This document shows, in pieces, positions 5,555 to 56,172 of a stretch of 64,000 nt of DNA. The stretch is from Eledone cirrhosa (taxonomy: Eukaryota): positions 109,182,001 to 109,246,000 of the forward strand of contig OZ024743.1 in NCBI GenBank assembly GCA_964016885.1, read 5' to 3'. Numbering within the stretch: position 1 is the first letter of the stretch; the number at the start of each line of letters is the position of its first letter. A model generated the notes under the pieces. It saw only the letters and a list, made by a program, of their open reading frames with translations. It ran no database searches and was not told where the DNA came from. Position numbers and translations under genes: made by a program.

Positions 5555-5607
<53 letters not shown>

Positions 5608-5609
<2 letters not shown>

Positions 5610-6487
5610 AGACGTAAAATAAGAAAATTATAAAAATTAAATTACTTACTAAAATTTCACTCCAACTAATTAGTTTCTGAAAGGGAATAAACATAGTTTC
5701 CGAGGAAACGTACAGAGAAGCCTTTCGTCATCAGGGAAGTCTATTCTCAGCTAAGTTTCCAGGCAATACGTGGACACAGGGAACTTATACAAAAATAATT
5801 CAGTGGATGGAAAAAAGTAAAGCGTGGACTAAGTTCCAAGCCATTGAAACAATCACTGCCTACTGCGTCGGTGGCAAATTCAAAAGTTACTAAGACAAAA
5901 CCTATATATTTGCTGGCATAGGTATGCATCTGTATATATATGTTAGTAGATATACTAATTTTTATAATTATCTCCAAATTAATTTGTCGAGCCAAAATTG
6001 GCCAAAACTGCTACTATAGTTCATAGTAACAGTCCGGCTGCTGTCTTCTTAACAAACCACTCTTCAGTGATTGACCTCTATGTCACGTGATTGATTCTTT
6101 TGAATTTGCCACCGATGCAGTAGGCAGTGATTTTTTCAATGGCTTGGAACTTAGTCCACGCTTTGGTTTTTTATCCACTGAATTATTTTTGTATAAGTTC
6201 CCTGTGTCCACGTATTGCCTGGAAACTTAGCTGAGAATATACTTCCCTGATGACGAAAGGCTTCTTGTACGTTTCTTCGGAAACTATGTCTATTCCCTTT
6301 CAGAAACTAATTAGTTGGAGTGAAATTTTAGTAAGTAAGTTAATTTTTATAATTTTCTTATTTTACGTCTCTCATATTATTGTTCTGCATCCCCATGCAT
6401 TGAACCACAAAGTTACTAAGACACAACCTATATATTTGCTTGCATAGGTATGCATCTGTATATATATGTTAGTAGATATACTAATTC
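5608..6487 (+). mobile_element. Non-coding PLE-type/retrozyme-like element with inverted arm and terminal direct repeat, flanked by (TA)n
   Basis: 5608-5884 is an inverted copy of 6098-6372, and 5882-5960 is a direct copy of 6408-6487 (period about 526 bp). It carries a CTGATGA..stem..GAAAC motif and is homologous to 47684-48365. Confidence 0.75.
6234..6296 (+). ncRNA. Hammerhead-like motif (non-canonical stem I/III); inverted copy at about 5686-5746
   Basis: CTGATGA(6247-6253) CGAAAGGC-loop-GTTTCTTCG GAAAC TAT GTC. The closing helix GAATA(G/T)AC/GTCTATTC is offset by TTCC. Confidence 0.5.
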
Positions 6488-6512
6488 TTTATATATATAT
6501 ATATATGTATAT

Positions 6513-7120
6513 ATATAATACATTATAAAGAAAGAAGAAACATTAGACATAAATTTAAAAAATATAAATACCCAATATTTCTCTACATTCTCGAATGTAC
6601 AGTTTCGGGGATACTTTGCAAGAACATTACATTATAGACATGCAGTATTTTTGTGAGGTTTGCCAGCTTATCAAGAGAATACCTCATTTAAAGTTTCAAA
6701 ACACGTCCGTAAGTCGTGAGAGAGAATCCCGGAAAGGCGGAGGGGGAGCTAATCACGTGATACAGCGGTCAAGAAACAGAATTTCGCCTCAGATATTAAT
6801 GCTCCCTCCGCGTTTTGTAGTATTTTTCTCTTGGTTGCAAGAGGATTAACTCTGTTTCTTGACCGCTGTATCACGTGATAAGCTCACCCTCCGCCTTTCC
6901 GGGATTCTCTCTCACGCCTTGCGGACATGTTTTGAAACTTTAAATGAGCTATTCTCTTGATAAGCTGGCAAAACTCACAAAAATACTGCATCTCTATGAT
7001 GTAATGTTCTTGCACAGTAGCCACGAAACTGTACAGTCGAGAATGTAGAGGAATATTCGGTATTTATATTTTTTTCAGTTTATGTCTAATGTTTCTTCTT
7101 TCTTTATGATGTATTATATA
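6513..7120. repeat. About 270-bp-arm fold-back palindrome next to (TA)n with hammerhead relic
   Basis: 6513-6782 is the reverse complement of 6850-7120. The right arm has CTGCATCTC...GAAAC-TGTACA-GTC-GAGAATGTAG. Confidence 0.85.
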
Positions 7121-8248: not shown

Positions 8249-9613
8249 TTAAAAAGAACATATGAAACAACATGCAAGAACGAGAAATAACAAAATTATA
8301 ATAAAATGTGATACAATTTTTAAAAGTTCAACTAGTTCAAATAGGAAATACAGGATTAGAGCACCGCACAATAGCAGCTTCAAAATATACAGTGCCACAC
8401 AGTCTTTTGGGCCAATGAATCCTCCGACCGGAACGGCTCGTAGTCTTATATCTTCGTGATTGGGGGGACGAAGAAGCAGGTGTTTGTGCGAAAGAAAAAG
8501 ACGGGGCGTTTGTGGCTCAGGTGTGATAGCGTATGTGTCCAAATTTGCTCGTTTGAGTCGATCAAGAGAAACCACCTCTCTGGAACCCTTAATGTCTACA
8601 GTTAAATGTTTCTCAGAACGAGCAAATACACGGCAGGGTTCAGAGTATGGTTGTGTGAGAAGTGGTCTCACAGAATCATTTCTCACAAACACATGGTTCC
8701 CCGAGGCAATATCCCTCGGAACTGCAGATTTTACAGTTTGCTTCCTCGTATCCATCGGCGGCAGTTCCTGAAAATAAGAACGCAGACGGGATACGTAGGA
8801 AAGCGGATCTTGTTCAGCAAGATCGACAGGGGCAAGCATTTGCCCAGGTAACGCTAGAGGAGCACCATATAATAATTCGGCCTGGGAGAACCCAAGATCC
8901 TCCTTTATTGTTGACCGAATCCCCAACAACGCAATAGGGAGGTACTCGCTCCAACGCGTAGGGTAAGGAGAAGTCCGTAGATTGGCTTTTAGTTGTCGGT
9001 GTAAACGCTCCACTATTCCATTAGAAACAGGATGATATGCAGTCGTTCGGTAGCGTTTAGCGCCGATGATTTTCGTTAATTCATGGAAGAGATTCGATTC
9101 AAACTGCCTTCCACGGTCGGTGGTAATTGACGTTGGTACTCCATATCGAGCGATCCATCCAGGCACAAGGGCACGCGCTGTCGTCTCAGCAGTGATATAT
9201 TTCAAGGGGATGGCTTCAGGCCATCGCGAAAAACTATCGATAACAGTCAATACGTAATTAAGACCACCGCTGATTGGCCAATGTCCCACACCGTCCACAT
9301 GAATGTGGCGAAACCTAGCGTCCGGGTTACAAACGGTACCTAGATGAGTCTTAACATGCCTGCGAACTTTTGATTTCTGGCAAGCAACACAGGAACGGCA
9401 CCAAACAGTAATATCACGTCTTATTTTTGGCCAGACAAATCTAGCCTTTATGAGTTTTACTGTGGAAAAAGATCCTAGATGTGAAATGTCGTGTAAAACA
9501 AGAAACACAGTTCGACGATGGTTCAACGGAACGAAAGGGCGTGGCACATCCAAAGAGACGTCGTAGAGGAGCCGTCGGTCTGCGGTTGATAATGGTAGGT
9601 ATTTCATCTTCAA
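8249..9613 (-). pseudogene. Gypsy integrase (HHCC zinc finger plus DDE core)
   Basis: LHDISHLG...CRSCVAC; [30 protein letters not shown]. Confidence 0.93.
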
Positions 9614-9619
9614 TTCATA

Positions 9620-11360
9620 AATTCAGACGATGTAACATCCAACGATTCGAGAGTAGGCTGATCGGCTGCCAAGCGATTCAAATCTATGTCATCGGACGAC
9701 GAGATCGAAGCAATCGGCAAACGAGACAGGGCGTCGGCCGCTGTATTCATAGAACCCGGAATATGTTGAATATCATTAGTAAATTGAGAGATAAGGTTGA
9801 GATATCTAGTTTATCTGTGCGAGTATTTGTCGGCCTTTGCTTGAAAGGCGAATGTCAACGGATTGTGGTCCGTGAAGATGGTGAACGTTCCTCCTTCAAG
9901 CATGCGCGAAAAATGCTACACCGATAAGTATATAGCTAACAACTCCTGTCCAAAGGTGCTGGAGCGCCTTTCGGCAGGTTTCAGCTTCCTGGAGAAAAGT
10001 TCCAACGGTTGCTGTTGATCGTTTTTAATTTGCTGCAAAACTGCGCCCACGGCAGTATCCGACGCATCAACACAAAGCCTCTTTATTTTTCTTTCGGCAA
10101 TTTTTCAAAATTTCCATCAATTAGGCACAAGCCGCCTATAAAAATTAATCAGCCCCATGAATTGGCGCAACTGACGGAGTGAGGTTGGTGGAGGCAAATC
10201 ATCTATAGCTTTAACTCTCTCAGGAATAGGTCGAATACCGTCAGCGTCAATGACGTGGCCCCAAAAATTCAGAGATTCGGAACCCAAAACACATTTTGAT
10301 GGATTAATCCGAACATTTTAATCCTTCAAACAACAAAATAGAAGGTCCAGATTGCGCAAATGTTGCTCTGGAGAAGAGCTAGCAACAAGAAGATCATCAA
10401 CATATATGTGTATACAAAATCGAGGCCACGAGTGACTTTATCCATAAATCGCTGGAAGGTGCTAGCATCATTCCTTAACCCGAAAGGCATGATGAGAAAT
10501 TTGAAAGATCCAAATGGCGTAGTTATAGCAGTTTTCGGGATGTGGTCTCTGTTGACAGGAATCTGGTTGTAGGCTCGGCACCAATCGAGTTTCAAAAAAA
10601 TGTTATTAACTTGCACCGAGGATGCACAATCCTGCAGATGTGGGATAGGATACCGATCCGGTATGGTCATCGAGTTCAATCGTCTATAATCCCCTGTGGG
10701 TCTCCAATCGCCAGAAGATTTTGGCACCATATGTAATGGAGATGCGCACGGGCTCGTGGAAGGACGAATAATTCCGAGCTGCAGCATACGATCGAACTCG
10801 GACCGTGCTGCATTCAGTTTGTCCGCTTGCAATCGACGGGGACGCGATAAAACCGGAGCGCCAGTAGTAGTAATAAAATGCACCGTGGCGTGGTTTGGAT
10901 CAGTGACTCTAAAATTTCCATGATATGGGTTTCCGGAGTTAGCGATGAAGAATGTCGGGCTAACTGTAGAAACTTCTGCCGTCCTGCCACAAAGAGAAAA
11001 CACAGTAATATCGTCGACTAGGCGTTGGTGACGGACGTCCACCGTCAAAGACAAATTGTGCCGGAAGTCCGCGACCAAATCGGGTATGGCAGGTCGGCAA
11101 CAGTGAAAACCCATTTGAAATCCCGACGAAGATTTCGAAACTGAAGTGGAAGTGAGATCTGTCCAAAAGTTCGGATTGGTGACTGGTTGACAGCTTGCAA
11201 TTCAATCGACGACTCGGGAGGAGTTACTGTAATACAATTAACAGGCCAAATACTGCACGAAGCTCCTGTGTCTACTAGGAAGTCTCTTCCCGTCAGGAGG
11301 TCCTCTATGAAGAAATGGCGGTTCTGTTGTGTCTCGCAGAGTCACTTGCCGCCTTTAGTG
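9620..11360 (-). pseudogene. Gypsy pol: aspartic protease, RT and RNase H (frameshifted)
   Basis: FLVDTGASCSIWP at about 11245-11285; ASPLHMVPKSSGDWRPTGDYRRLN, MPFGLRN (ORF 10326-11114); LCVDASDTAVGAVLQQ RNase H at about 10030-10080. Confidence 0.92.
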
Positions 11361-21642: not shown

Positions 21643-21707
21643 TATTTTGTCTGATGAAGGCATACCATAATATAATTTGGTATCCCTGAAATATGTATAA
21701 TGAAATA
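21643..21707 (+). ncRNA. Type I hammerhead ribozyme in the inverted pseudo-LTR
   Basis: TATTTTGT CTGATGA AGGCATACCA-loop-TGGTATCCCT GAAA T-ATGT-A TA^ ATGAAATA: 8-bp stem I (two G-U), about 9-bp stem II, minimal stem III. Confidence 0.8.
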
Positions 21708-30274: not shown

Positions 30275-33200
30275 TTTTCTCTTTCTCTTAATTTCGAGTA
30301 TATTTGTTTGACCGGCCACCTTCCTGGTGGCAAGGTTGTAAAAGAAAAGAAATTGTCATCCCTTGAATCGCAAGAATGTTTTGCATATTTTGAAGGTGCC
30401 AGCTATCGCAGCCATTTGTAGACCATGAATTAGGGAGCTGCGCTTTTTGTCCGCAAATCCAAGTTCGGTCATACTTTGGTCCAAGCGGGTTGGTATATAA
30501 CCCGTAGCACCAATAATGATGGGTATGAAGCTAAAGGTGTATCTTGGATACTGGATTTGTAAGCTCCTCATCAATGGTCCGTAGATGTCCTCCTTCTCCT
30601 GTATTTTTCTGACAACGTTTACATCAAGTGGGCAGCTGATCTCCACAACAGAACACGTTTTCAATGTGTGGTCCCAAACTACAATATCAGGCCGGTTGTG
30701 CTTTAATTTGGTGGCAGTTTTTATTTTCAGGTTCCACCAGTATTCCTTAGTGCCATCTGTCTCAATATATTCTTCCTCGTTTGTTGTTAATTTTGTTTTC
30801 CGAAGTGCGTTCCAGATAGTTCTAGCTATCCCATCGTGTCTCATGGGGAGGTAGTAGCGAGATGACATTCTTTCGCAGCTGGCAACAATGTGGCTTACAT
30901 CCTCGATCTTTGTTTTACATAGCCTACATTTATTGTCAGCTGCTGGCCCTCCTCTTTTGTGCAGCAGATATTTGGTAGGGAGTTCTTGTTCCTGTATTTC
31001 ATAGAGATATCCCTCAAGGTGTGATGTCATAAACTTTTCGGAACTCCATGCCAGGCTTTTTGAGTGGTTTATCCCCTCTATGGTCTGTGTTTTACGCCTC
31101 AAGTATCCATGCACAACTTTCTCTGTAAATTGGTCAATTTTTTGTTCTTGTTTGAACATTGAATAGGATCTTCCGATTTCTCTGGGTGATAGATTTATAT
31201 CAGGCTTTATTCCATATCTCTCCTCCAGATCAGTCGCTATTCTAATGATATTTCTTTTTTCATGCTCATAAACCTGAGCAAGATGGTCACCAACCTTTTT
31301 CCTCTGTTGAAGGTGTTGCTTCAGTGTTACTATCCGGGTCTCATATGTTGTTAATATTGATTTTAGACCCCGGCCACCTTCCTTGCGTGAGAAGTATAGC
31401 CTATCCACATCACCATTGATGTTAAAGTTCCCAGTAACACTGAGAAGTTTTCGAGTTCTAACATCCATCTCACTTAGTTCTTGCAATGACCAGTTCAGTA
31501 GGCCAAATGTTGGCGTTAGAATTGGCACAGCATAGGTATTGTGGTCAATGTATTTGTTGTATGCTGACAGTTCTGATGACCATATTTTTTTTACTCTTCT
31601 GAGGTATTCAGTTCTGGTTCTCTCCTTATTTATGGGTCCATCATATCTGACATTCTCATCCTGTCCAAGATATCTGTAGTTGTCACCTGACTGCAGAGGT
31701 TGTATTGTCAGGCCGTTCATATCTAGATTTCTAGAGGAGGGCACAGCTCTTGCACGTTTTACTGCAAAATATGCACATTTGGACTCACCGAATTTCATTT
31801 TGATGTCGGTTGAAAATTGTGTAATGAGGTCCAATTGTTTCTTGATCTCATTGATATTTGGCCCATACAACTTCAGGTCATCAACAAAGAAAAGATGGGA
31901 GATACTTCTGGGCCCACTTCTTTGTCCACCTTGTTTCCTGAGTAGGTAATATAGTGGATTCAGTGAGAGAACGAAGAGTAGTACTGACAAGCTATCACCC
32001 TGAAAGATGCCCTTCTGGTAATGTATCCTATCAGTCTTAACCTGCTCCTTCTCACCTCTAAGGATCAAATTGGTGTACCAGTTCTTGGTCAGGCGTTCAA
32101 CAGCAGCTACTAATGGTTGTGGGACTTTAGCTAACTGTAAAGCCTTAATAATCCACCCATGAGGTACACTATCAAATGCTTTTTGATAGTCCAGCCACAC
32201 GACAGTCATGTTTCTGCGATTCTTTGTTGTTTTTTCCTGAATCATTTTGTTAGTTAGTAGGTGATCTATGCAACCCCACACCTCCCTCTTTCCACCAGCT
32301 TGCTCAGGTGTTATGTTGGTAGCACAGTGATCCTGTAAGAACAGGTTAAGGCACCCAGTATATAATTTATACATGATGTTTTGGCAGGCAATTGGGCGGT
32401 AATTTTTAGCAAGGGTGGTTTGGCTATTTTTGGGAATGAGGAGAGTAGTGGCAGTTGATAACCATCTGGGCAGTTCTTGTGTGCCCTTAATGGTTTCTGT
32501 AAACAGCCGTATGAGATCTTGCCGATAGAAAGTGAAATTCTTCAACCAGTATCCTGTAATGAGGTCTGGGCCTGGCGATTTCCTATTCGACATTTTCTGT
32601 AGAGCTGTTTCCAGTATTGACCCATCTATGTCATATTGTTTTGTCTGGACATGTTGGCAGTAGTCCTGTTCCAGTTGTTTTAGCCAATTAGCTTGTCTGT
32701 TGAATCCGTCATCCGTTTCCCATACAGATCTCCAGTAGTTCTCAACCTGTTCTTTTGAAGGGGTGTCGTTTACAGGGATTGAGCTTTTGCCACCGAAGCT
32801 GCGATAAACTGATTTAGGATCTCTGGCAAACAATCTATTTAGCACTTGTCTTTTATGGGCTGTTGACTTATATTTTAGTCTTTCTGTTGTAGCTGTGAGT
32901 TGTTGTTTCAACTGGTGTAATTTGGAGTTCAAAGTTTTAAATTTGGTATCTCCAAATCGTCTCTCTAACTTTTTCTTTAGGTCTTCTTGGTGTCGTGTGA
33001 AGTTTCTCTCTATGTTGCATTTCATAACGACTGCGATGTGTGAGATACTTCATCTCAGGGACAAAATTTTGGTTTTTAAATTTCGCATCCACGCTGGTTC
33101 AGGCTTTCTGTTTGTATCTTGATTGCGTGGTTTTAGATGTGTGTTATATGATAGCAATGTGACAGCTGAAACATATAACAAAACATTGAGCGTTTCAAAT

Positions 33201-34489
33201 GTCGTTTCTACACCTTTAGATCGTATAGCCTTCAGATAATTGCCAGCTATTTCGTTCACCGCTTCCAATTCCAATTTAGTGGGTTCTTTACTGACTCTAG
33301 TGTTGTATGGTCTGTCACTCACATTAAGGCTGTGTATCTCTTGAAACATATCGTTCCATATCACTTGTAGGGTGCCCACAAGTTTTTGGTGCTCTGTTTG
33401 TTCAGTAGAGTCATGAATTGCAGCCTCGTTGTTGATGTGGTGACAATTACTACTAGAGTCAGCTGACCTTTCTCGCTGTTCTTCAGTGGAAGTGGGATGG
33501 ATTTCAGCAAAATTGTTGGTGAGCTGTTCACTGTTAGATTTAGCTGGCCATTCTCTTTGTCTGTCAGTGGAGGTGGGGTGGTTGTCTACAAGGGCTGTAT
33601 TTGTAGTATCACTCGATTCCGTTAGATGTATCAATTTACATCTAATGATACGTTTTGTCTGTTCATTTAGATGCTTTGGAGAAAAGTCTAATTCTGGGTG
33701 TTTGGAGTTCCATAAAGTTTTTAGCCTTTGCATAAAACCGAACTTTTGGGGTTCAGATTGTTTGTATGCTTCATATAATTCTTTGTTAAGCTCGTAGCTC
33801 CACTGTATACAACGGTTGTAATTGCGATTTGGTCGAAGGAGACTTGTACTTTTTGCCATGATGAGTTCGTCTATTCACTAATATTTTGTATTTATTTTTT
33901 TTAAATAGTCGATGATCTTCTTTAAAAGTTACGACAAAGTTCTGTCAGAATCAAATTTAAAGTTATTCACAGCTTGGGTAATATTTCTTTTCAGTTAGTT
34001 TTTAATTCTACAACTGTGTTTTAAACGTTGTTCTTGAATCGTTTGAATCGAGAACAAAAAGAACCGTTACTTAGTATATTCCTTTACGAATGTAATATAA
34101 TATAACAACGCTGTATTTATATGTTAAAGTTTATGTATCATTCATATAAATAGGTGTTCTACAACATATTCACAACATTCACAGTTCAAACACTTATATT
34201 TTTGTTTCTGAATCGAAAACGTTACTTATATATTTCTTTATAAATGTAATATAACAACGTTGCATTTATATGTTAAAGTATATGTATCGTTCATATATCA
34301 TAAGTGTATGTATCGTTCATATAAATAGGTGTTTTACAACACACTTACAGTTCAAACACTTATGTAGAATTATTGTATGTAATCTTACCGCGTAATGTAG
34401 CTCAACTTTTTCCAATATATGGTATGTTGCCTTCATGTAAGCCGTAATTACACACGTCCGATTATCGGACACTGACCACAACGGTCGCC

Positions 34490-47589: not shown

Positions 47590-47683
<94 letters not shown>

Positions 47684-47688
<5 letters not shown>

Positions 47689-48365
47689 AGTACATCTACC
47701 AACATATGTGTACAGATGTACACCCATGCTAGCAAATATATATGTTATGTCTTGGTACCTTTGTGGTTCTATGCAGGGGGATGAAGAACAATTATATGAA
47801 AGACGTAAAATAAGAAAATTTTAAAAGTTAAAAATCAACTTACTTACTAAAATGTTCACTCCAACTAATTAGTTTCTGTAAGGAGATAAATATAGTTACG
47901 TAATATAACCATAGATAATTTCTTACGTCATCAGGGAGTCTGTTCTCAGCTAAGTTCCCAGGCGATGCACGGACACTAGCAACACATATAAAAATAATAA
48001 TTCAGTGGATGGAATAAAGCTAGCGAGGACTAAATTCCTGAGCACTGTAAAAATTCACTGCCTCTGGTCAGTGGCAGATTCTAAAGAATCAATCACGTGA
48101 CACTGAGGTTAATCAGTTAGGAGCGGGGTGGTATTATGACAAGAGCCTACTAATATCCTGAATCAGCAGTAAATTTTGGCAAGTTTTGCTCAACAAGTAA
48201 TTTGGAGATAAATATAGAGAATTAGTACATCTACCAACATATGTGTACAGATGTACACCCATGCTAGCAAATATATATGTTATGTCTTAGTACCTTTGTG
48301 GTTCTATGCAGGTGGATGCAGAACAATTATATGAAAGACGTAAAATAAGAAAATTTTAAAAATTA
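47684..48365 (-). mobile_element. Retrozyme-like non-coding element with about 140-bp terminal direct repeat (period about 535 bp)
   Basis: 47684-47826 is repeated at 48219-48362; homologous to 5608-6487; minus-strand CTGATGA-CGTAA..TTACG at about 47895-47935. Confidence 0.75.
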
Positions 48366-48432
48366 ATGATGTAAGGATTCTCTCTCTATATATATGACGT
48401 AAGGAATTCTCTCTGTCTCTCTCTCTCTCTAT

Positions 48433-50551: not shown

Positions 50552-52637
<2,086 letters not shown>

Positions 52638-52646
52638 TATATATAT

Positions 52647-52734
<88 letters not shown>

Positions 52735-52752
52735 GTATGTATATATATATAT

Positions 52753-53812
52753 ATGACGAAAACTTCTACAGGAAAATCACTAAAAACGAAGAAAGGAAAT
52801 CGAGGAACCAAATAGGCAAACTAACAACAAAGTACCAAAACAACCTAAGACCAAAAGAAGTAGATTACCTAACCAACTTCGAAATGAAAACCAGCAATTT
52901 CTATGGATTACCAAAAATTCACAAATCCATAGAAATCCAAAACAACATAAAAGGCAAAAATACATCATACATCGAAGCACCAAAACCGACAGACTTAAAA
53001 TTACGCCCCATTATTGCTGGCCCAGCCTCAAGCACACAACGTCTAAGCAACCTATTAGACATCATACTCAAACTCCTATGTAAAATAGTTCCAAGCTACA
53101 TCAGAGATGATATGGAATTCCTTAACTATATCCCCCAAAAAGTACACCCGGATACACTCCTAGTCAGTTTTGATGTAATAAGCCTGTACACTAACATCCC
53201 ACACGACCTAGGGATTGAAGCTGTGGACTTCTGGATTACAAAACACTCAAGTCACATTTCAGAAAGATTCCCCAAAGAATTCATCTTGGAAGGACTTAAA
53301 TTAGTATTGGAAAACAACCACTTCCTCTTTGACAACGAACTTTATCTACAAATAAAAGGAACAGCCATGGGTACCAAAGTGGCCCCTACATATGCAATTC
53401 TCGTTATGGGTCACTTAGAGGCAACATTATATTCCCAACTACAGATAACATTCAGTCACGACTTCGCCTTCTACATTAATAAAAACTGGAAACGTTACCT
53501 AGATGACTGCTTCATCTTCTGGAACAGAAGCCAAACAGACCTACAAAAAATGTTATTCGATCCTAAACAGGCTTCATGAAGCTATACAATTCACTATGGA
53601 ATGTAACGAAAAGGAACTGCCCTTTCTAGATATCCTCATCATTAAAGAAGGGGAAAATATCATAACGGACCTATTTTGCAAACCCACTGACACACACCAA
53701 TACTTAAATTTCCGGTCAGCACACCCCTCACATACGAAAAGGAACATTCCCTTCTACATGGCAAGGCGAATCTGCACTATAGCAACACACCCCGTACTAC
53801 ACCAACAACCAA
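52753..53812 (+). pseudogene. Neptune-like PLE reverse transcriptase fragment
   Basis: FYGLPKIHK, LRPIIAGP, FDVISLYTNIPH, GTAMGTKVAPTYA, WKRYLDDCF, LPFLDI, KPTDTHQYL..SAHP; one frameshift near 53550. Confidence 0.9.
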
Positions 53813-53959
53813 CAACTTAATTTATAAAATAATTTTTTTTAAGAAAAATTCTTTTTGGATTTTGTGAAGAAAATAAATTTGTTGAAAGCACAAGTGAAGC
53901 CATTTTTTCTTCCCCCCTGTCTTAATATACCTAACTGTACCAGGGATTACACACATTTT

Positions 53960-53994: not shown

Positions 53995-56172
53995 ATACTT
54001 GGGGAGGGTCATATTTGTGTAATATTGACAGAATTAATAACAGAACACACTCACTGTTTGGTTGGTTTACGCTTCTCGCTGTCTTTTATATCTGCGATCT
54101 AACTTACTCGGTCCTCAATGTTGCCATTGACTGACCGAAGGTCAAAAATAATACAGATACAGTATAGACACAAACACATATATATAGTTTACATAAATCT
54201 TTCGAGGCACATCTGCAACATCGTCAGTGGTGTTATATTTTTTTTCCTCCTGTTGTGTTGTATGTCTACGCCATTTTTTATTCAGTCTGTCTATATATTT
54301 ATTTATTTGCTTGTTTGTTTATTTTATTTTGTCTTCTTTGCGCATGCTTTTGCGTGTGTGTATAGTGTTATGTTTGCTGTGTGACTAGTGTGTATAGTGT
54401 TGTGTTTGCTGGGTGACTAGTGTGTGTTTATGTGCTTGTTATTATTGTTCTTGTGTATGTATTTATTTATCTTATTTTATTTTATTTTATTTACTTATTT
54501 ATACTTCTCTTAGGTCAGTGTTGTTTGTTTGGGTGTTGTTGTTGTTCCACTCATTCTTTCTGTTTAGCTTTGGTCTTCTAATTTCTATTTCACTGGCCTC
54601 TCTGATTTGCCTATCTTCTGGGTCATTCCTATGTTTAGATATTATTCTAATTTCTATGTTGTCTATGTTACCGTCATGTTGTTGTCTAGCATGTTCGTAT
54701 AGTACTGACCCGTTTTGTCGTCCTTTTAGTTCCCCCCAGTGTTTGTCCATCCTTTCACCTATGCTACGAGCTGTCTCCCCTATGTATGTTGTTGTCATGT
54801 TTCTGCAAGTACCCTCTATACATATTATGCTATAGACTACGTTTCTAGTTTTACAGTTTATCCGGGGGTTCACCTTACATATGATACATTTCCTATTGGT
54901 ACAGTGGGTTTTCTTAAAAGGGTAGGTTTTGCCTATCAGGGATTTTATGGTGATTCCTGGCTTTTCTACCACCTTTATTTTTAAGTGGGTCTTTCTCAGG
55001 GCCTTTCTACACTGGTTAACTAATTTCCCTCCAGGGGTGGCGTCCACAAACATGACACTCTGATATCTCTGGTTGTCGTACCATGATGTGGCCTTCCCTA
55101 TCTTATGTCTAGCCCTATCAAGGCTATTCCATGATTTGCACCTGTATAATGGGCAAATTCCTTTCATGCCCAGTTCTATGAGGGTCTTATACTTTTCCAT
55201 GGCTCCTTCGTATACTCTGACTCTGTCTCTTTGGTTGTAGCCAGAGAACTGCATGCGGTTGATTAAGTGTTGGATGTGTCTTTCCATTTCTGTTGGGTCG
55301 CACATGCTGGACACATTCTTCATCACTCGTACCAAATCTGCGATCAGAATATTAAACTTAGCACTACTGGACATTGCTTAGTTTTTGAGTATCAGGTATT
55401 TGGAGGCCATGGGTTTAGCATAGTGTGAGTGGAGAATTTGGGCTCTCTCGTCTATAGTGTTAATCCAGAGTTCTGTGTCAAATACAGGTAGTCTATTGTT
55501 AGGTTGTTTGGAAGGGAAGTCGATAGTTACAGTTATACTCTGGTGTATGGAATTAGCTATCTGCTGGATGCTTTCCATCGTGCTACGTTCTAAATCAAAC
55601 TTGTTAGTGCTCTCTAGTGGGGGTGTTCTTATAACTATATTGATATCGTCTACATAACGAGAGTACATGATGAGGTCTATGGAGCTTTCATTAAGGAGAT
55701 ATTTAAGTCTCCTTTCCCACCATACCATGAAAAGGTTGGCAACATCACCAGCTATGCTGACGCCGATGGCTGCTCCCTCATTTTGGGTGTAGATTTTCTC
55801 ATTGAACTTAAATATGTGGCCCTTTAGGGTAGTTTTGATACAATCCCCTATTGCATGTGCGACCATTTTTCTTACCTGATCATTGTTTTGGGGGGTCCGT
55901 ATAGCTTTGGTCCACCCAATCCACCTTCCCATGGGAGTCTTTTTACCATTGAGGTTAGGGTGGGGGGTCTACCTCTTATAGGTCTACTAGGGCAGAAACA
56001 TCTAAGAAAGTTAGATCGCAGATATAAAAGACAGCGAGAAGCGAAAACCAACCAAACAGTGAGTGTGTTCTGTTATTAAGTCTGGCAATATTACACAAAT
56101 ATGACCCTCCCCAAGTATAACAATATTTGTTTCTACACACGATTTCATATAAAAAACCTCGCTAAACTAATT
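53988..56172 (-). mobile_element. PLE, 5'-truncated, with inverted pseudo-LTR (56008-56172)
   Basis: RT ORF 55378-55932 and ORF 54499-55374 are separated by one in-frame TAA. 56008-56125 is an inverted copy of 53988-54105. Hammerhead-like motif at 54190-54231 (-). (TA)n flanks. Confidence 0.92.
54499..55932 (-). pseudogene. PLE RT C-terminal half, Cys-rich linker and GIY-YIG endonuclease
   Basis: QNEGAAIG, YSRYVDD, HCTNRKCIIC..C, NVVYSIIC...YIGETARSIGERMDKH, EASEI..PKLN. Confidence 0.92.

Follow-up and report, generated by a model that had tools for sequence, protein, structure and literature searches.

Insertions of Penelope-like elements (PLEs) have been described as 5'-truncated partial tandems that form pseudo-LTRs, often beside an inverted 5'-truncated copy; they carry a 'tail' of 30-40 bp at one end only and show, in one clade, a bias towards (TA)n (Craig et al. 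2021, PMC8557442). Work on the lizard PLE PAc (Frangieh et al. 2024, PMC11167929) reported that both DNA strands are cleaved and extended, and that reverse transcription begins at two adjacent internal start sites on the RNA, downstream of the hammerhead cut and with the tail lying between them; the start site was reported not to be homologous to the target. The hammerheads of PLEs, as described by Cervera & de la Pena (2014, PMC4209133), carry one more nucleotide after A9 and a G10.1-C11.1 pair; their helix II is long, helix I measures 4-5 bp, and 15.2-16.2/loop 3 is palindromic, so that dimers can form. Another kind of hammerhead-bearing repeat, the animal non-LTR retrozymes, is proposed to be mobilised by PLEs (Cervera & de la Pena 2020, PMC7229834; Li, Clavereau & Pollet 2026, 10.64898/2026.07.22.740005).

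The window that we analysed, a stretch of 64,000 nucleotides from the 3.0-Gb genome assembly of Eledone cirrhosa, holds at 5603-6493 an insertion of about 890 bases within a TA microsatellite, made up of an inverted arm, a 526-nt unit and a partial second unit. By the window sequence, its left flank, the target, is (TA)n at 5556-5607 and its right flank is (TA)n-like at 6494-6520. Self-comparison and BLAST place one full non-coding unit, of a family that we call F1, at 5883-6408 on the plus strand, followed at 6409-6493 (+) by a terminal partial unit (unit positions 1-84, 96.5% identity by BLAST); the two members of the direct repeat, 5883-5963 and 6409-6489, are spaced 526 apart and share 96% identity. 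On the minus strand at 5603-5886 lies an inverted, 5'-truncated arm, here called the A arm, which BLAST and self-comparison trace from unit 215 to about 495-500; it matches unit 215-495 at 95.8% over 284 nt, and the two arms are 95-97% complementary. Its outer end, adjoining the (TA)n, lies at reverse-transcription start site A, and a hammerhead domain lies within it at 5640-5751 (-), matched by our model R1 at 139.1 bits. A preliminary description had recognised a unit of about 526 bp with its start repeated at its end and an inverted copy of its middle, all in (TA)n, and its coordinates proved right to within a few bases. Directly downstream, a palindromic element of about 600 bp (6512-7120) shares the same TA microsatellite; its arms (6557-6790/6841-7074) are 92% complementary, outer arms lie at 6512-6562 and 7070-7120, and the CUGAUGA box is absent from it.

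In order to see how general this layout is, we mapped unit coordinates on 60 loci (overlapping loci removed). These are the best full-length matches, a choice that favours copies which are young and long. The genome search gave 2,610 first-look candidates for the F1 unit and 3,689 for the copy of a second family, F2, and 40 of each were scored. Among the mapped loci, 53 insertions (F1 27, F2 26) contain a complete unit or more. An arm has its 3' end at site B in 51 of these 53, site B being unit ~72-93, where the sequence ...ACUAAUUCUUUAUA runs into (TA)n (in the window at ~6489-6493, UUAUA). The arm on the opposite strand ends at site A, about 115 nt upstream of site B, in 31 of the 53; here ...UUUUACGUCUCUCAUAU is followed by (TA)n at unit 492-498 in F1 and 503-509 in F2 (in the window at ~6377-6382, CAUAU). 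By end class there are 31 insertions with A and B, 13 with B only, one with B at both ends and 8 others with an odd or truncated second end. The inner (5') ends of the arms vary, and the junctions of opposite arms mostly fall between -10 and +2 nt, with fillers of up to 39 nt in a few insertions. A run of at least five TA repeats was found no further than 30 nt from the left end in 24 and from the right end in 25 of 31 F1 clusters; among 26 F2 insertions, the left end had such a run in 13 and the right end in 19. The preliminary description had taken such copies to be circularly permuted; instead, their outer ends are fixed at A and B, as in PLE insertions.

The window's second copy, at 47670-48366 on the minus strand, belongs to F2 and is 77-78% identical to F1 (BLAST, alignment). 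It is composed of unit 467-535, 1-535 and 1-93, without an inverted arm, and a model search places its hammerhead at 47838-47950 (-). At 47660-47690 a (CT)n run separates its site-B end from (TA)n, perhaps through slippage or the addition of untemplated nucleotides when reverse transcription began.

The architecture agrees in several respects with that described for PLE insertions in PMC8557442 and PMC11167929: a partial tandem, an inverted copy, a tail at one end, targets rich in TA/AT and two start sites past a hammerhead. Specifically, a partial tandem lies next to an inverted 5'-truncated copy in the window and in 31/53 insertions, and the tail, mapped from the insertion ends to 6378-6493 (+), stands at one end only, between the two start sites, in the 31/53 insertions of the A and B class, one insertion having B at both ends. 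The tail here is about 115 nt compared to the 30-40 bp published for PLEs, and the start sites lie in TA patches able to pair with the target, whereas the PAc start site is reported as non-homologous. Since the layout matches that of PLE insertions, target-primed reverse transcription is its likely origin. We put the chance at roughly three in four that 5603-6493 is a single PLE-like insertion which arose in this way from a non-coding repeat unit of about 526 nt, with a PLE RT/endonuclease supplied in trans.

Comparison of the two families suggests how the RNA would be used. Their majority sequences are 78% identical overall. Identity drops to 57-63% in helix II of the hammerhead and reaches 90-93% in unit 418-446 and unit 470-530/1-30, the best-kept stretch beginning in the hammerhead's 3' half and extending across the tail. 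The tail holds conserved hairpins, for example at 6382-6405, with some covariation, and both start sites lie in AUAU/UAUA patches able to pair with nicked (TA)n. We infer that the tail is probably a recognition module for the enzyme and that one start site would serve each target strand, which would be why only one arm carries the tail. In the proposed mechanism, the enzyme, probably as a dimer of the sort modelled for PAc (PMC11167929), would nick both strands of the TA target; each nicked 3' end would anneal to a UAUA/AUAU patch of the RNA, the two patches flanking the structured tail; two cDNAs would extend toward the RNA 5' end, and only the cDNA started at site B would contain the tail; and the two cDNA ends would then be joined head to head. 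For arms longer than one unit, the template would be an uncleaved multimeric transcript or a circular RNA.

The repeat is abundant. We counted 9,026 occurrences in the genome of a 24-nt core taken from the hammerhead's 3' half, compared to 0 for the reversed control, which indicates that the motif is not a product of chance, and the family holds at least 9,026 hammerhead-bearing units. Units measure 526 nt in F1, 531-538 nt in F2 and 522-571 nt across subfamilies. As an unselected sample we took the first 100 of the 9,026 motif places, which group into 63 clusters. Among these 100 places the same-strand motif spacings are either 522-571 bp (19 cases) or greater than 16 kb and never 2-6 kb, at least two same-strand hammerheads occur in 17 of the 63 clusters, and 17 of the 18 two-strand clusters are minus-then-plus, that is, with the arms facing outward. 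Most insertions in this sample hold less than two units; arrays of up to about nine units, with seamless tandem joins, occur in the genome. Identity within loci (97.4%) and between loci (96.7%) does not discriminate one template from several.

Tandem arrays of this kind, and the report that PLE structures trouble genome assemblies (PMC8557442), are what could be said for regarding the copies as a satellite or microsatellite-associated duplication propagated by unequal crossing-over, or as an artefact of assembly. We find this hardly credible given thousands of dispersed sites on many contigs with two end points in common. Furthermore, in contigs from three runs of one sample, which are of unknown kind, are not independent of the assembly and cannot be read for RNA starts or ends, many copies are seen to stop at 6377 and close to 5960, where they pass into (TA)n.

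If a PLE enzyme acts on these RNAs, it is not encoded by the repeat. The only ATG ORF within the unit has 65 aa (6250-6447) and is broken in F2 by a stop at codon 3, in agreement with the earlier statement that the unit has no ORF; a tblastn search of PLE proteins against the unit gave nothing below E = 0.04, and a search of the repeat for a tRNA or tRNA-like module found none. The ORF for RT plus GIY-YIG endonuclease that is a trait of PLEs is missing from the sampled copies, which hold no ORF and no protein remnant, and the repeat is therefore non-autonomous. Coding sequence was joined to 0 of the 53 insertions and to 0 of 20 further loci, and a survey of 54 loci (230 kb) of three abundant coding families by BLAST, tblastn, nhmmer and model found no sequence shared with an autonomous PLE. 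The preliminary description had named constant attachment of the copies to a coding PLE among the observations that would speak against it; with 0/53 and 0/20 this was not seen, and its view of a non-coding, retrozyme-like retroelement is supported.

The same numbers bear on whether the copies are broken-off ends, that is solo pseudo-LTRs, of an autonomous coding PLE and not a lineage standing on its own. Most PLE insertions are reported to be 5'-truncated (PMC8557442), as such an origin would have it. We nevertheless judge it quite improbable, as none of the 53 insertions and 20 further loci is joined to a PLE ORF, same-strand spacings of 2-6 kb are missing from the first 100 motif places, there are several subfamilies with units of 522-571 nt that are all without coding sequence, and no similarity to the three sampled PLE families was found.

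Coding PLEs are present in the window. One, set in (TA)n at 54502-55968 (-), has RT and then GIY-YIG endonuclease frames; these match no Pfam family at E <= 0.001, and we identified their motifs by visual inspection and through BLASTP against the other PLE family. Hammerhead-like motifs of this element lie at 54227 (-) and 50980 (-), a partial copy lies at 51695-52522 (-), and its minimal hammerhead, CUGACGA-U-GUUGCA...UGCAAC-GAAA, differs from that of the unit. A genome search with its endonuclease part yielded 37,410 first-look candidates; many of these are 95-96% identical, and open frames reach ~1,218 aa. A second family is represented by its RT at 52575-53817 (+), for which there were 12,756 first-look candidates, many of them keeping an intact frame of 796 aa. 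In a third family, 55-57% identical, there are an ORF1 and a 775-aa ORF2 and, 380 nt behind the ORF, a hammerhead-like motif in which U and U flank helix II (locus L091). Near (TA)n, four motifs resembling minimal hammerheads, CUGAUGA-A-stem-U-GAAAUAU, occur at 21651 (+), 17761 (-), 45389 (+) and 14645 (-), two of them as an inverted pair about 3.9 kb apart, and at locus L004 the end of an element with this motif abuts an F1 insertion. The window also contains an LTR-retrotransposon integrase with RT frames at 8249-11201 (-) and a LINE-like RT with a zf-RVT domain at 30356-33874 (-).

Each unit carries a predicted PLE-type hammerhead of type I, which in the plus-strand unit of the window spans 6230-6340 (+), as placed by two-family comparison, descriptor, model and covariation, and which would cut after U6316. 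The core box CUGAUGA (6247-6253) is followed by the unpaired C6254 and by helix II (6255-6301, 47 nt), which has a 6-bp base stem (6255-6260/6296-6301) and a distal hairpin of 9 bp (6266-6288); the unpaired A6302 stands between helix II and GAAA (6303-6306). Helix III is palindromic, CUAAUUAG (C-UAAUUA-G, 6307-6314), position 16.1 is U6315 and position 17 is U6316, and helix I pairs ACU(U)CC with GGAGU (6241-6246/6317-6321) over 5 bp directly abutting the core. The elements of the type I core are all present, namely C3-U4-G5-A6-N7-G8-A9, G12-A13-A14, the A6306/U6315 pair and U6316, also in F2 and in further subfamilies. So are the traits of the PLE minimal hammerhead: C6254 as the extra nucleotide after A9, the G6255-C6301 pair, a long helix II, a 5-bp helix I and the palindromic CUAAUUAG. 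As AACUAAUUAGUU is a perfect palindrome spanning A14 to U17, helix III could pair between two copies and form an extended helix. In the preliminary description the ribozyme appeared as CUGAUGA-stem-GAAAC, a variant with its closing helix offset by TTCC. Both boxes do exist (6247-6253; 6280-6284), but GAAAC is not the core box: it reads GUAAC in F2, and covariation and F2 show it to belong, as the 3' strand, to the distal hairpin of helix II (6280-6284, +). The conserved motif uses the second GAAA, with helix I abutting the core, and the apparent offset arose because the wrong boxes had been paired. The conservation expected of the boxes did hold up, since CUGAUGA and the second GAAA are kept while helix II is at 57-63% between the families.

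Several comparisons speak for this structure. Our descriptor matches the three unit copies and nothing else in the window, compared to 0 matches in 100 dinucleotide shuffles, and among 97 distinct sequences 96.3% of cells pair, compared to 91.5% in shuffles and 40-48% with slid partners. Helix II has compensatory changes at 7 pairs; when further subfamilies are included, double changes are seen at 13 pairs. These further non-coding subfamilies, with units 72-90% identical to F1 or F2 and the same layout, were found along with deletion variants by a search pattern that left out the long helix II, helix III being fixed by that pattern. The base stems of helix II include GAAAGG/CCUUUC, GUAAGG/CCUUAC, GUAUGG/CCAUAC, GUAAUG/CAUUAC, GCAAUG/CAUUGC and GGAAU/AUUCC, and the distal hairpin, GUUUC-UUCG-GAAAC in F1 and GUUAU-AUUAC-GUAAC in F2, likewise shows compensatory changes. 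Helices I and III can form and are almost invariant, so that covariation does not test them and conservation is what supports them. The alignments used are model-based and lean toward the given structure; a MAFFT alignment was dropped, its core being one column off between the families. Fold stability is not above that of shuffled sequence (z = -0.38), and thermodynamics thus gives the hammerhead no support. The Rfam hammerhead models gave no match at E <= 10 on 2.6 kb and on 136 nt, and none at the gathering score on the whole window; as they also miss the hammerhead-like motif 380 nt behind the intact PLE ORF of L091, which served as control, the blank result is uninformative.

The 5' ends of the arms lie close to the predicted cut more often than expected. 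Those of B arms fall within about 80 nt downstream of it in 12 of 28 cases in F1 (expected 14.8%, p = 3e-4) and in 13 of 24 in F2 (p = 3e-5), and those of A arms lie in the same ~80 nt in 3 of 16 and 5 of 15. Arms start exactly at GGAGUG in L009 and L034; those of L007, L015 and L040 start 3-6 nt upstream of the predicted cut, which does not fit simple run-off on cleaved RNA. In two F2 insertions, L033 and L042, both arms end at unit ~442-445 in a perfect palindrome (CUUACUAAAA meeting UUUUAGUAAG), and these palindromic junctions are 7-10 nt downstream of the predicted cut. The pile-up fits a template of partly processed multimers with a 5' end made by the ribozyme, which is not proof; it would also be explained if the enzyme stalled at the folded motif, or by TA microhomology within this AT-rich stretch. 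A stronger proposal, that the pairing of B arm and A arm records one enzyme dimer that primed both strands of the target on one RNA and that the pile-up records self-cleavage of the hammerhead in vivo, we offer tentatively, with the odds somewhat against it.

The pile-up and the motif could also be read without any catalysis, with a conserved structured RNA serving for protein binding or template dimerisation and with stalling of the RT or TA microhomology accounting for the 5' ends. That covariation backs helix II only, that an unpaired C and an unpaired A sit on its two sides, that Rfam finds no match, that animal PLE hammerheads are reported to cleave poorly in vitro (PMC4209133) and that the start of several arms lies slightly upstream of the cut, by a few nt, are all in keeping with such a role. 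Its difficulty is that all core boxes are in register across families that differ by 22% overall and by about 40% in helix II, and that the descriptor has zero chance matches; the Rfam blank, with the L091 motif missed too, carries no weight. We consider a non-catalytic motif possible, though rather doubtful, and prefer to read the motif as a hammerhead.

The distance from the predicted cut to the two start sites downstream of it is 60-175 nt. A cleaved linear monomer would thus give a stump and no full copy, and any arm of more than one unit must have been copied from a circular RNA or from a multimeric transcript left uncleaved. The preliminary description was correct in that copies of more than one unit exist (17/63 unselected clusters with at least two same-strand hammerheads), and had explained them, as retrozyme-like, by reverse transcription of a circular or multimeric RNA. 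In the full retrozyme cycle, units cut by the hammerhead would be ligated into circles of about 526 nt and copied by rolling-circle reverse transcription. Such a cycle has been proposed for PLEs (PMC4209133) and for animal retrozymes (PMC7229834), and it would account for the seamless tandem units in arrays of up to about nine, for the clusters with several same-strand hammerheads and for start sites past the cut, from which a linear monomer cannot template a full copy. Yet a circle has no 5' end while the 5' ends observed cluster past the cut, which linear, partly processed multimers fit better; most insertions are shorter than two units; and the hammerhead of PAc is reported to be dispensable in vitro, with no reads ending at the cut site (PMC11167929). 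The full cycle seems rather unlikely to us for this repeat.

The repeat can be compared with several systems already described. Like the minimal hammerheads of PLEs in PMC4209133, its hammerhead has type I topology, an extra nucleotide at 9/10.1, the G10.1-C11.1 pair, a short helix I and a palindromic helix III, but its helix II has 47 nt in two tiers compared to 6-8 bp there, and it has an extra A6302 between C11.1 and G12 that falls outside the description given in that paper, the coding PLE of L091 having U/U at the two positions that hold C6254 and A6302 here. Compared to PLE insertions as reported (PMC8557442, PMC11167929), the repeat lacks an ORF and, among the three families sampled, a sequence link to a coding PLE. 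With the animal non-LTR retrozymes of PMC7229834 it shares the non-coding, AT-rich and tandem-prone character, the hammerhead and the coexistence with PLEs. It differs from them in its larger units (522-571 nt compared to about 170-400, the defining range of such tandem repeats being 150-450 bp) and in its PLE-minimal hammerhead, theirs being canonical type I with loop-loop contacts; furthermore, inverted arms and single or partial units prevail here, and the PMC7229834 text does not mention inverted arms. Chlamydomonas MRC1, a non-autonomous Chlamys element (PMC8557442), is likewise described as a non-coding PLE derivative with pseudo-LTRs and head-to-tail multicopy insertions, but MRC1-like elements are said there to resemble autonomous families at the 3' end and to be without a canonical hammerhead, whereas the present repeat has a hammerhead and no parent among the three families sampled. 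Our verdict is that the repeat is a non-autonomous, hammerhead-bearing, retrozyme-like parasite of PLEs, close to the animal non-LTR retrozymes.

How PLEs integrate and what their hammerhead is for are largely open questions, with one in vitro system described (PMC11167929). The family reported here supplies thousands of short, young insertions in which both start sites, the tail and the arm junctions can be read directly from DNA, and it links non-coding repeats that carry a hammerhead with integration of the PLE type on structural grounds, beyond mere co-occurrence. For genome annotation, blocks of this kind should be labelled as non-autonomous PLE derivatives and not as satellites or unknown inverted repeats. 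If the reading with one enzyme dimer and self-cleavage in vivo were true, the family would be a natural read-out of PLE integration and of the purpose of the hammerhead.
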